The notes under the pieces were generated by a model. It was not told the DNA's origin and searched no databases. It worked only from the letters and a program-made list of their open reading frames with translations. A stretch of 60,561 nt of DNA, counting the filler, from Catajapyx aquilonaris (taxonomy: Eukaryota): the NCBI GenBank assembly GCA_000934665.2. It is 2 parts of 2 records of this genome, joined end to end, with 100 filler letters (N's around TTAATTAATTAA, not from the genome) between each part and the next. Parts side by side here need not be neighbours in the genome. Positions count along the whole stretch, not along the records: positions 1 to 30,242 come from JYFJ02004670.1; 1 more part is not named here. The stretch is one strand, 5' to 3'. A program made the translations under genes and the position numbers. Of this stretch, positions 7,719-12,517 are shown one piece after another (within the stretch, counting starts at the first letter, position 1; each line of letters begins with the position of its first letter).

Positions 7719-10700
7719 ATGGGTCGTCAGATCATGAGACAAGAGTCTGCTGCCCTGCTGCCTCCAGGTGCTAAGAAACCTAGACGGAAACTGTACCCGA
7801 GCCAAAGAAGAAAGAATAAATCTCGCATTGCGAAGATGAATCGCGCCTGCTGGATGCGGAAGAGGGAGGCCGAAGCTGCCAGGTAGATTCTGCAGGATAC
7901 ATAGAACCTAATGCAACTAGTACTGTGCCTCAAATCAAAGATATAATCAATATAATCAATATTCCCCATGTTCGGTCTTGTGGGCGCGCTCATATTCGGC
8001 CTCATGGCTGCACCTGTTCGCATCTGTGACGTCACACAATTTTTCAACCGGCTTGCTCACTCTGTATCGTTCGATTATCGAACTTGCCTCGATTCAAGAT
8101 GGCCGCCCTGTCAGATATTTATCTCGAAGCGATGCTGAGGAATTCGGGTTAATTGAGAGGTAATTAAGGGTTAATCAGGGTCCGTTTGGAGGCTGGAAAG
8201 ATGCGGTAGGACCCGGGGCGTCGGATGGGCGTCGAAGATTTGGGGTGGAAGGGGAATTGAGAAGGCTGAAGCCGGAAGCGTCGCTTGGGTCGTGTTCGAT
8301 TTTTTTGGGAGACAAAGACAAAGAGAATGTTGTGCACATTCTGACTGGAATTTCAGGGAGATTTGGTCTCATTACAATGTACGGCAATGTGTCAGAGACT
8401 CACGAAATGCTAATTGTTTAGTTCAAAGTGTTTCAAGAACAATGCACTGCACTCCCGAGTAAAGAGCGTTCTCACAAGTACAACGTAACAAAAATGGAAT
8501 TGTTAAATCGCATTCAATAATGGCATTTTTAGGCGTATAACCTGGTACATTGTGTCTAAAAATAACACTAATTATGATTTTTTCTAATTATTTTTACAAA
8601 TGAATTTATCTAATTTAACTAATTATGAATTTTTCTAATTATTTTTACAAATGAATTTATCTAATTTAACTAATTATGAATTTTTCTAATTATTTTTACA
8701 AATGAATTTATCAAATTCAACTAATTATGAATTTTTCTAATTATTTTTACAAATGAATTTTTCTAATTTAACTAATTATGAATTTTTCTAATTATTTTTA
8801 CAAATGACTATCTAATTTAACTAATTATGAATATTTCTAATTATTTTTACAAATGACTATCTAATTTAACTAATTATGCATTTTCTGCTTTTAACTAATT
8901 ATGAATTTTCTACTAACTAATTATGAATTTTCTACTAACTAATTATGAGTTTTCTACTTTTAACTAATTACGACTTGTAATTGTTCTAATTATGGCTTTT
9001 ACTAATTATGAGCCTTCTAATTATTTTTACTGAATATTTTACTAATTATGTTTTATAGTCATAATTTTACTAGGTATTTAACTAATTATGAACATTCCAA
9101 TTATCTTTGAGGATTATTTTGCTAATTATTTTTACAAAAAATTATGACTGGTACCCATTATTTCACAAATTATGAAATTTTGTAATAATTTAAACTAAAT
9201 AGGATTTTTTTTTCATTTTAACTAATTATGTAATGAATTTTCTACTTATTTTAGCTAATTATGCAGGTTTAATTATTTTGCTAATGATGGCTTTTAATAA
9301 TTTTTACTAATGATAGGCTTCCTAAGTGTTTTTACTGCTTATTTTGGCAATTATTTTTACTGTTTGAGTTTGCTAATTTTTTGCTAATTTATTATTATGA
9401 TTTTACTCATTTTTACAAATTATGAACTTTCTTATTATTTTTGCTGATTATTTTTATCAATAATGTTGTACCTTTTACTGATTTGTTTTACTAATTATGA
9501 CATTTAAATATGTAAATTTAAATGAAGTGTTAGTAGAGCCCATTTTTGGGGGCATGAAGCCTGCCTCTCATAAAATAAGTGAAAATGTACAGTAGAATTG
9601 TGATGTACTCGAGCGATTCTGTGTCTGGAAAATTTATTTGGGTTCAGATCATTTTTGCAATAATTAATTTGGCATGTTTGAACGGACGAGTTGAAATTAA
9701 TTCTGCTCCTTTCCAGGGTACGCGATGACACCGTGAATCCTCCAGATGCCAGCATGACTCACGGCATATGCAATGGAGTTAACAAGGAGGAAGACAACCT
9801 GAATGGCGCACAAGACGGCCTGGTTCAGCCGACTCGTGAGAACAGCTACGAGGTGTTGAAAGACGAGATTGAAATCGGAGAGGAAGGAATCGACGGGATA
9901 CCAGTATCGCTCAAAGTACACTGGCAATGTGCACAATTACGTCAGAATAATTGCAACCAATTTTTTTTTATTCCCGCAGGATGAGCCTCTTGACATACCA
10001 GTGGACGTAAAAGACCTGCAGGACAAATCAGATGACGAAAGGAATGATACGAACGACCTGCAGGAGCCTGTTGACATATCGGACGATGAGAGTTACGACG
10101 TAAAGGTGAGGCTTAACAAGCAGGGTTCGACACATTAATAAGATAACCGGAGATCCGCTGTCCATAGCAGCATTTTCGTCTGAACTTGTGATTTTCAGCC
10201 GTTTCTTGTGCCGAAAACACGGTTGGGAACAGGACGGGTAGTGCTGGTGAATAGTGAGGAACCTGAATACATCTTACCCGACTTTGTGGGCGACAATGAA
10301 GAGGTTTGTGTTCGATACGAGCTGAAGAGGTTCATGAACAGGCGGAAGAGTCAGGCGGAAAAGGTACTTGCAAGCAGAAGGTGAAAGTACTATTCCGCTC
10401 TTCATTTCTCGTCCAAAGGAAGCCTGAAATTGTCCTTTGTTGCTTTCAGACAAAGCGGCCGTCCCTGCTGATGAATCGTCTCCTCTCATGCTCGCACTGC
10501 AGAGTATCGTTTGAAACTGAAGAGTCGTTGCAGCGTCACATGCAGGAAAACCATAGCGGCACAGGACTTTTGAAGGTTGTTGCGTGGATTATTGTCGTTC
10601 GGTTGTAATATTGGAATTTGGCTTCACAGGTCAGACCCGTCGCTGCGATGACCTCAAGTTCAGCTGCCGCTAGTGATACCACCGAATCACCTGAGGTTAT

Positions 10701-12517
10701 TGAGGTTGCGGAGGAAGGAATGGCGTCGTTACCAGAGTCATCTTCGTCATCTGAGCCCTACGAGAATATCGATGTTCATTCGGACGCATCTAATCGACGG
10801 CAGACTGTTCCCGGGCCACGCTCGATCACAGCTCCACTCAGGAGGGGAAACATCGGACGGCCACAGGTTTGGCCCGAGGTGTGGAGAGATAAACTTCTCA
10901 GATACATAAAAAAATACATAAAGCCAGTTGAATCCGAACCCTAATTTTCCCTTCCCTTAAAGTGCCTTCAGCTTTTGCGGCCAATCGTTTCAACGCATGA
11001 ATCGACACACTCAGAACCGGCCGTGTTCACCGTTCCAACCATCGTTAGTGTGAGTAATCGCACCTAAAATTCGCCGCAATCAGTTCATCTAATTAATTAT
11101 TTGTAATTGTAGTCAACACTTGACGTGGCCAAGATGGCGTTGTGCGCACGGTTTCTCACCGAGCTGCTGGAGCTGCCAAAGAAGTTTCCGGGCCGAATGC
11201 AGAAGCAAGTCACTGAAAAGGTGCACCTTCTCACGCAGAAGCTCGTAGATGGAAAGATCGGATCGCAGAACTTTTATAATAGGGTTCAGAAGGAGTTCAA
11301 AGCCGAGCCGCAGCCGTTTCTTGTCGGATTTTTGACGGTACGGTCGTTCTAAAGGGTCGTAACGTATTCTAAGTGGCTCCTGCAATATTATCGTTTAAAA
11401 CGTGCCTTACCGATTTCAGGCGAGTCTTCCACATCTGCGGTATGCTCTGGCTAACAACGTCGTGTCCGTCAAGGGAATCCAGGCTCCGGTTCACCCTACG
11501 GTGGCCTACGAGCCTCCAGATGCGCCCACGTCTCCTATCGAGGTCCGTGTACGACCGGTAAAAGCCAAAATTTACAGACGAACCGTAAAACGGTGCTCCA
11601 TTCTCCGTACTTGATTTGTAAATTTAATATTGCGTGAAATTAGGTAAAATTATTGTCGTCTACATACATTTCTTGCATTGCTGCGTCTAATTACTGATGT
11701 CAAAGTGTTTTAATTGCGCAAGAAGTGATCTTCGCAAGGAAAGTACTTGTATCCGTTGCGTATTGCGTGGAATTAGGAGTAATCATGCTGTCGTCCACGT
11801 ACATTTCTTGCGTTGCTGCGTCTAATTACCGATGTTTCAATTGTGCAGGAAGTGATGATCTCAAGTGAGAGTACTGCCAGAAGGCGCCATCATCGGCAGG
11901 AAACAGCGACCGATTTGTCTACCACTCGAGTCCAGTCCGCTGCGGATGCTGCCGGGAGCCTCAGAGGATCTGAGCCGCAGATGTCTGTTGGTATGTTGTC
12001 ATCCGATATAATCAACCTAACTGGACGTTCGTACTTGTTTTCACTGTGAGACTTATTTCTAGTTGCAGAGCCTCTCAGCCACAAGTGTGTCAACTGCGGC
12101 ATCGAATCCGCGGTACACTGGGGACCAGATGGCCCGCAGTGTTTTCAGTGCAGAACCACGACGCAATCCAATGGCGTTAACTACTCTCCTGAAGTACGCC
12201 CCAGGAGGGTCAAGCAGCTGGATCGCACTTGCTTCAACTGCGGGACGTCCACCACTTCGCTATGGCGGCGCAACAATGACGGCGAGAACGCCTGCAATGC
12301 CTGCGGACTGTACTTCAAGCTTCATGGCGTAAAACGGCCAGTCGCGTTCAGGCGAGACCAGATCCGAACACGGAGACGGAAGGTCAAATCAGCCTCGGCG
12401 GACGAACCAGAAGATTTGTCTTTGCCTTCATCGTTGGACATTGCCATGAGTACGGAGCCGGCCTCGGAATCTCCCGAAGTATCATCATTAATTTTAGTCG
12501 TTAAGAAAGAGAAATAA
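7719..12517 (+). CDS. 11-exon transcription factor with C2H2 finger, TAFH/NHR1 domain and two GATA-type zinc fingers
   Basis: Phase-consistent GT-AG model: 7719-7882, 9717-9903, 9980-10105, 10199-10363, 10450-10575, 10630-10866, 10972-11049, 11113-11337, 11420-11542, 11849-11990, 12069-12517; the donors of exons 2 and 6 have in-phase alternatives. C2H2: CSHC..F..L..HMQENH. TAFH-like: CARFLTELLEL..VHLLTQKLVDGKIGSQNFYNRVQKEFKAEPQPFLVGFLTASLPHLR. GATA finger: CFNCGTSTTSLWRRNNDGENACNACGLYFKLHGVKRP..IRTRRRK. Confidence 0.85.
8565..9500. repeat. AT-rich minisatellite, 51-bp unit decaying into shorter ctaattatg units, in intron 1 of the GATA gene
   Basis: Unit actaattatgaatttttctaattatttttacaaatgaatttatctaattta starts at 8618, 8669 and 8720 (period 51) and degenerates after ~8880. 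Confidence 0.9.

Follow-up and report, generated by a model that had tools for sequence, protein, structure and literature searches.

In the ETO/MTG/Nervy proteins the TAFH domain, there named NHR1, is reportedly tied to GATA-bound chromatin in trans, with ETO2 recruited to GATA1-TAL1-E2A-LDB1 complexes. The gene described here is located on the plus strand of a 60,561-nucleotide stretch of DNA from Catajapyx aquilonaris (GenBank assembly GCA_000934665.2), which consists of two parts joined by 100 filler letters and is referred to below, at its full length, as the window. The gene very probably carries a TAFH domain and a GATA zinc finger in one real and transcribed reading frame. We rate it as a GATA-family factor with an accessory domain that is unreported in that family.

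The known contexts of the two domains are needed for the comparison; statements attributed below to PMC7948954, PMC2383905 and PMC9535882 refer to parts of these sources. A review of helical hub domains, following InterPro, places the TAFH domain in animals, where TAF4 combines it with a histone fold and the ETO proteins combine it with NHR and MYND domains, and no protein with both TAFH and GATA is given there (PMC7948954). The TAFH domain of TAF4 recognizes the ligand motif D-phi-phi-X-X-phi-phi in E2A, LZIP and ZF, and the TAFH domain of ETO binds motifs in the E-protein HEB, in N-CoR and in others (PMC7948954). The dual-finger GATA domain is ancestrally split over three exons, which correspond to ZF1, ZF2 and the 3'CD (Gillis et al. 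2008, PMC2383905). The spider genes GATAL1-3, which include fuchi nashi, are arthropod genes that branched off from canonical GATA genes; they are restricted to their lineage, evolve fast and have an altered cysteine spacing in ZF1 (PMC9535882). The term 'TAF' occurs 0 times in that report, which therefore describes no TAFH domain.

The window is eukaryotic DNA with short GT..AG introns. The gene spans positions 9717-12517 and consists of a chain of ten coding exons with the ATG at 9754, 619 codons and no internal stop. All exon junctions are of phase 0, except for the last one, which is of phase 1. One public run matched the gene. The library type of this run is unrecorded, and its RNA origin is deduced from the contigs, which probably derive from spliced RNA because they carry GT..AG joints. 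The run holds 53% of the sampled words of the stretch 9600-12700, which is approximately the exon share of that stretch. Five contigs of the run are found on positions 7000-15000 at an identity of at least 99%; they carry ten GT..AG joints on the plus strand and one CT..AC joint, which belongs to the adjacent gene on the minus strand.

The most important of these contigs is 866 bases long and covers 11177-11337, 11420-11542, 11849-11990 and 12063-12502, so that a single spliced contig holds both the TAFH and the GATA exon, with one frame open through them. A second contig of 911 bases covers 9715-9915, 9980-10105, 10199-10363, 10450-10575, 10630-10878 and 10963 to approximately 11008. The GT..AG joints present in the contigs are 9915>9980, 10105>10199, 10363>10450, 10575>10630, 10878>10963, 11337>11420, 11542>11849 and 11990>12063, together with the joints of two alternative 5' exons to 9717. 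Counting one 5' exon joint, nine of the ten joints in the chain from the 5' exon to the last exon are confirmed by contigs. An in-phase alternative donor at 10866 was ruled out, as the contig uses 10878; the acceptors 10972 and 12069 were ruled out in the same way, the contigs using 10963 and 12063. The remaining joint, 11049>11113, is placed solely from a GTGAGT donor, a TAG acceptor after a pyrimidine-rich tract, and a matching phase.

Upstream of this joint, residues 165-186 of the spliced product, encoded by bases 10489-10554, follow the pattern C-X2-C-X12-H-X4-H of a C2H2 finger. The exon 10450-10575 scores 23.0 bits (E 1e-4) with the zf-C2H2 profile PF00096, just below the cut-off of 25.2. 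The C2H2 finger is probably included in the same protein as the TAFH and GATA domains.

The initial annotation, made from the DNA alone, had proposed an in-phase exon chain that links a C2H2 finger, a TAFH domain and a GATA finger in one polypeptide. The spliced translation and a pattern search place all three motifs where it had put them, to within a few bases. The chain is indeed in phase, with ten coding exons, 619 residues and no internal stop, and its numbering of 'exons 8-11' fits when one 5' exon is counted. It had also considered that the TAFH and GATA exons might belong to separate transcripts; the 866-base contig joins both, and one open frame runs through them. For the C2H2 finger the proposal held in part: its pattern is present and its frame is in phase, while the joint 11049>11113 is without contig cover.

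Of the two alternative 5' exons, only exon 1a could be coding in the main frame. This frame runs through it without a stop and contains up to four ATGs (7854, 7836, 7734 and 7719) and a Lys/Arg-rich stretch, and the isoform that uses exon 1a may have a basic N-terminal extension. Exon 1b is non-coding; an in-frame ATG is absent, and a 17-codon upstream open reading frame (ORF) is present in another frame.

The exon 11113-11337 alone matches the TAFH family PF07531 with 49.7 bits (E 3.7e-13) over profile positions 5-64 of 90. The cut-off of this family is 27, and the possibility named in the initial annotation, that the segment does not score as TAFH, is not what was found. With a purpose-built TAFH profile derived from 40 database segments, the spliced protein scores 70.4 bits over residues 315-403. 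The alignment is unbroken over the joint 11337|11420 and ends near base 11488; therefore the splice restores a complete domain. An alignment of 17 full-length domains has 33 columns with a conservation of 85% or more; 24 of these are identical in this protein, including the core PQP.L..FL..SLP.LR. An insert of four residues is located after the first helix, between the first two helices.

Comparison with the solved structures gives the human TAF4 TAFH domain (2p6v) at 37.6 bits (E 2.2e-8), while the ETO/CBFA2T chains are found at 14.2-15.7 bits (E 0.2-0.6). By its sequence the domain is of the TAF4 type and not of the ETO type, in agreement with the earlier description of it as TAF4-like (37.6 bits for human TAF4 vs 15.7 for ETO). 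A full HMMER scan for TAFH in 1.84 billion cluster representatives gave 49 matches at E <= 0.001, the best with 51 bits and 39% identity; the top identity among the database relatives is 39-49%. The domain content was scanned for the 22 of the 49 matches that are long enough for several domains, at E 1e-5, the other 27 being 74-162 residues long and left out. Ten of these 22 combine TAFH with the TAF4 C-terminal domain, in 11 TAFH stands alone, and one is unrelated. Neither of the ETO-type families NHR2 and zf-MYND (0/22) nor a GATA domain (0/22) is found in this set.

The position of the intron inside the domain is also of interest. In 28 of the 48 matches with the motif ...PQP.L..FLK, the sequence runs on as V followed by unrelated residues. 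We read these continuations as probable unspliced gene models that enter a phase-0 GT intron, located exactly where this gene has its intron 11338-11419. The protein thus shares with TAF4 its best TAFH sequence match, the core motif and the phase-0 intron position after ...FLK. It differs from TAF4 in the four-residue insert, in the lack of the C-terminal histone-fold region and in the terminal position of the GATA exon. A search for the TAF4 C-terminal or histone-fold region (PF05236) in the 1505 ORFs that the window contains gave 0 matches at E up to 10. The TAF4 C-terminal profile was made from nine TAF4 C-termini, and the control P0024 scores 71.7 bits with it. The assignment of the gene as TAF4 itself was rejected: it is not a TFIID subunit, because this C-terminal region is absent and a GATA exon stands at its end.

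Membership in the ETO/MTG/Nervy group was rejected as well. NHR2 or MYND gave no match in any coding-exon translation of the gene in the Pfam scans, and the ETO chains reach only the scores given above. A TAFH hub connected with GATA-bound chromatin would be the common feature. However, the hub described here is of the TAF4 type, and it shares one polypeptide with the GATA finger.

The last exon matches the GATA family PF00320 with 60.9 bits (E 8.6e-17, cut-off 26.8). The C-finger C-X2-C-X17-C-X2-C begins at residue 525 (base 12230), and its basic tail extends to approximately base 12388. As in the animal two-finger GATA factors, this finger carries LWRRN, CNACGLYFKLHG and the basic tail. In the region from C56 to K106, which includes the finger and the basic tail, 36 positions are identical in all eight aligned sequences (the window and seven two-finger members). 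The last exon has 41-48% identity with these seven members in an alignment that runs from the N-finger through the linker and C-finger to the basic tail. The nearest solved structures are the DNA-binding regions of GATA4, GATA1 and GATA3, with E from 1e-31 to 1e-33. A search of longer proteins with the GATA exon gave 64 matches, all of them with GATA only; PF07531 is present in 0/64, and the best match, from a springtail, has 50% identity over 77% of the query.

It is important to compare this part of the protein with the animal two-finger GATA factors (GATA1-6 and the Drosophila pannier/serpent/grain class). The alignment takes in each of the two fingers, the linker between them and the basic tail. 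However, the N-finger is shorter here (X14, while theirs is X17) and is without WRR and NACGLY, and a TAFH domain and a C2H2 finger are located upstream. Both fingers and the tail are contained in the single exon 12063-12517, in contrast to the ancestral three (PMC2383905). The spider GATA-like genes are likewise fast-evolving arthropod GATA offshoots with an altered first finger (PMC9535882). Their ZF1 spacing is 17-20 with the signature QCV(K/R)CG, while the spacing here is 14 with HKCVNCG (PMC9535882). Membership in the spider GATAL2 (fuchi nashi) group was therefore rejected, HKCVNCG being present instead of the signature.

The Pfam scans covered the translations of all ten coding exons, nine of them in one scan and the first in another, together with the possible 5' extension and a longer version of the sixth exon. 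No Pfam family was found in the other six of the nine exon translations, nor in the first coding exon, the 5' extension or the longer sixth exon. The features of the gene are presented in Table 1.

Table 1. Exons of the TAFH-GATA gene of C. aquilonaris and the evidence for each (positions in the window)
Feature	Position	Strand	Evidence
Alternative 5' exon 1a, 3' end	7851..7882 (span from 7719 considered)	+	contig joint 7878>9713 (cut +4), 32 letters, to 9717
Alternative 5' exon 1b, 3' end	8130..8159 (span from 8097 considered)	+	contig joint 8157>9715 (cut +2), 30 letters, to 9717
Exon with first ATG common to both isoforms (9754); acidic N-terminal region begins	9717..9915	+	911-base contig, translation; no Pfam family
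Acidic coding exon, phase 0/0	9980..10105	+	contig joints; no Pfam family
Coding exon, phase 0/0, without known domain	10199..10363	+	contig joints; no Pfam family
Exon with one C2H2-type finger (bases 10489-10554)	10450..10575	+	zf-C2H2 score, pattern, contig joints
Ser/Glu-rich linker exon	10630..10878	+	contig joint 10876>10961 (cut +2)
Short linker exon	10963..11049	+	acceptor 10963 confirmed (contig to ~11008); donor 11049/11050 (GTGAGT) inferred
TAFH first part, ends ...PQPFLVGFLT	11113..11337	+	PF07531; 2p6v match; contig covers 11177-11337; acceptor 11113 inferred
TAFH second part (SLPHLRYAL..., to ~11488), then Pro-rich linker	11420..11542	+	profile alignment; joint 11337>11420
Linker exon ending in phase 1	11849..11990	+	joints 11542>11849, 11990>12063
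Last exon: decayed N-finger 12086-12151, GATA C-finger and basic tail 12230-~12388, acidic/Ser tail, stop TAA 12515-12517	12063..12517	+	PF00320, alignment, GATA structures, contig 12063-12502

The same architecture was searched for elsewhere. The TAFH exon gave 17 candidates among longer proteins, none of them at E <= 0.001. Among metagenome contigs it gave 485 pattern matches, of which tblastn confirmed 0. The GATA exon gave at least 599 pattern matches among metagenome contigs, and 256 of them encode relatives. A TAFH-like ORF, sought in six frames with the purpose-built profile, was found at 0/78 loci from the best 80 of these 256; this is a weak test, as the majority of these loci probably represent ordinary GATA genes from organisms without a close relation to this one. 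In the protein atlas, the nearest clusters of the TAFH or the GATA exon belong to TAFH, RST (one cluster, 0.79) or GATA families, and TAFH and GATA occur together in none of them. A fused TAFH-GATA protein was not found in the published literature, as judged from titles and the beginnings of abstracts. The initial annotation had stated that this architecture is not known from characterised proteins. These searches agree with it, the combination being absent from them, and the review names the TAF4 and ETO/NHR contexts only (PMC7948954).

A gene in another part of the window is useful for judging how well this lineage is represented in the collections. An exon of eIF3 subunit E (eIF3e) is located at 49273-49728 on the minus strand. 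Among named proteins its best matches come from a centipede (81%) and a horseshoe crab (78%); the highest identity overall, 86%, is with an unnamed JGI protein. The exon is too conserved for the lineage to be placed by it. Since the highly conserved eIF3e reaches only 78-81% among named proteins, close relatives appear to be missing from the protein collections. With such thin sampling of the lineage, the missing orthologues are weak evidence, and the description 'lineage-specific' is unproven. A restriction of the TAFH-GATA gene to this lineage is plausible.

The explanation that we consider reasonably probable is that of an expressed and spliced protein of approximately 619 residues, which would regulate genes at GATA sites with a built-in docking hub and would have originated by exon shuffling. 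This predicted protein would begin with an acidic N-terminal region without a known domain, followed by a C2H2-type finger, the complete helical hub of a TAF4-type TAFH (NHR1) domain and, as its GATA part, a decayed N-finger and then the canonical C-finger and basic tail. We infer that the GATA exon would bind WGATAR, that is (A/T)GATA(A/G), sites through the C-finger and tail, as GATA1-6 do. The TAFH hub could bind short hydrophobic motifs in the disordered regions of other regulators, like the TAFH domains of TAF4 and ETO. The protein may thereby bring TAFH partners to GATA sites, or it may hold them from TFIID and compete with it. The acidic N-terminal 130 residues may be an activation region. 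Such a docking-hub mechanism is plausible, the proposed cofactor docking being deduced from the conservation of the domain. The protein itself was scanned for the TAFH-binding motif with 0 matches, where shuffled sequences give an expectation of 0.15 for the TAF4 motif and 1.6 for the ETO motif. Binding of the TAFH domain to its own chain was dropped from consideration and is unlikely, because the protein is without a TAFH ligand motif.

Regarding the origin of the gene, the TAFH exon pair may have arisen as a copy of the genomic DNA of TAF4. This is suggested by the phase-0 intron of the TAFH domain, which is located as in TAF4 gene models. In the GATA part, both ancestral introns would have disappeared by intron loss or through a processed copy, since the two-finger region occupies one exon where the ancestral arrangement has three.

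Several observations weigh against this explanation. Among the contigs of the run there is none for positions 11009-11176, and the joint 11049>11113, which connects the C2H2 half with the TAFH half, is uncovered. The run is not recorded as RNA and possibly comes from the same sample as the assembly. The contig depth of the gene is low, 5.25 and 7.05 vs 39.9 for the neighbouring gene, depth being a poor measure of expression. The N-finger is decayed: in the pattern C-X2-C-X14-C-X2-C (12086-12151) three residues are deleted and WRR and NACGLY are lost. Its four cysteines are present, and it retains only C8, V9, N10, C11, W19, D22, C26 and C29. A quick maximum-likelihood tree with 36 rows gives the window sequence an end branch at the upper limit of 10 and places it inside no starred set, and owing to this very long branch the gene cannot be placed in the GATA123 or the GATA456 class. 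In the protein, cluster and metagenome searches no orthologue or paralogue was found for the gene or any part of it.

Part of this evidence would also be consistent with a young chimeric gene, in which TAF4- and GATA-derived pieces were shuffled together and which is transcribed and spliced but drifting, its function not being under selection. The absence of an orthologue from every search, the extremely long GATA branch, the decayed N-finger, a top TAFH identity of merely 39-49%, the low contig depth and a recent 135-base tandem duplication in the intron 11543-11848 all point in this direction. However, ten exons remain open across 619 codons, and the positions important for fold and DNA contact are kept, namely 24 of the 33 TAFH columns and every alignment-invariant position of the C-finger and basic tail. 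Such selective keeping of key positions is not expected from drift, and we regard a drifting chimera as unlikely. The uncovered stretch 11009-11176 allows another arrangement, in which the acidic and C2H2 half, up to 11049, would belong to one transcript or isoform and the TAFH-GATA half, which starts at 11113 and has a Met at 11134, to another; the fusion of TAFH with GATA would stand, with the C2H2 finger outside. Retention of the intron 11050-11112 would stop the upstream frame at a TAA 15 bases in, and an in-frame Met is located seven codons into the TAFH exon. Against two products stand the canonical GTGAGT donor, the acceptor after a pyrimidine-rich tract, the phase 0 of both exons and the similar contig depths of the two halves (5.25 and 7.05). 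In addition, the TAFH exon opens right at the acceptor AG. This division of the gene is quite improbable.

The novelty of the architecture must be judged separately. It could be an ordinary conserved family of this animal group that seems new because annotated genomes are scarce. The best relatives of eIF3e, at 78-81% for the named centipede and horseshoe crab proteins and 86% overall, would be consistent with this, as would the limited sensitivity of word-based searches. However, no TAFH match from the HMMER scan exceeds 51 bits among 1.84 billion cluster representatives, GATA is found in 0/22 of the longer TAFH matches at E 1e-5, and the review of TAFH architectures contains none with GATA (PMC7948954). 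We find an ordinary family rather unlikely, and the explanation retained is that of a spliced GATA-site regulator with a built-in TAFH hub.

The surroundings of the gene contain several other features. On the minus strand, an uninterrupted ORF of 2113 residues at 755-7096 has a NACHT match of 42.6 bits (cut-off 26.7) and, near its N-terminus, a weak OTU-protease match of 20.4 bits, under the cut-off of 23.3. This ORF and the GATA gene are arranged head-to-head with their starts approximately 0.7 kb apart. A convergent gene is present as a contig at 12503-14197 on the minus strand, with a CT..AC joint at approximately 13520-13578 and a depth of 39.9. Its product is glutamate-rich and coiled-coil-like, and its Pfam matches are all sub-threshold. 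As its contig starts at 12503, in the last 15 coding bases of the GATA gene, the 3' ends of the two genes abut or overlap.

A tandem duplication of approximately 135 bases is located at 11628-11883, with an identity of 81-91% in the repeat core. Copy 1 is within the intron 11543-11848, and copy 2 includes the acceptor in use as well as some 35 bases at the start of the exon 11849-11990. Copy 1 has AAG at the position where copy 2 has the CAG acceptor, and none of the contigs uses copy 1. Farther along the window, two paralogous ORFs of 242 residues are found on the minus strand at 23299-24027 and 28644-29372, approximately 5.3 kb apart. Both contain multi-finger C2H2 arrays, with zf-C2H2 scores of 69 and 79 bits, and they look like a local zinc-finger gene duplication.

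The practical weight of the finding is limited, as the gene is known from a single genome, its relatives were not found and its function is deduced. The TAFH domain belongs to a limited set of small helical hubs, which recognize short motifs within the disordered regions of activators, and it is described only in TAF4 and the ETO family (PMC7948954). It can be proposed, with considerable doubt, that the gene represents a third class of TAFH proteins beside these two: a sequence-specific GATA factor with a TFIID-derived hub, by which hydrophobic activation motifs, such as those in the bHLH E-proteins, would be bound directly at GATA sites. If so, one polypeptide would do the work of the vertebrate GATA1-TAL1-E2A-ETO2 multi-protein complexes, and it might compete with the TAF4 of TFIID for the same activators. 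The natural tie of TAFH to GATA would be a ready test of whether a hub tethered to its site serves in activation, in repression or as a decoy. The gene would also exemplify the origin of new regulators by exon shuffling, in which the part donated by TAF4 kept its intron and the GATA part lost both of its own.

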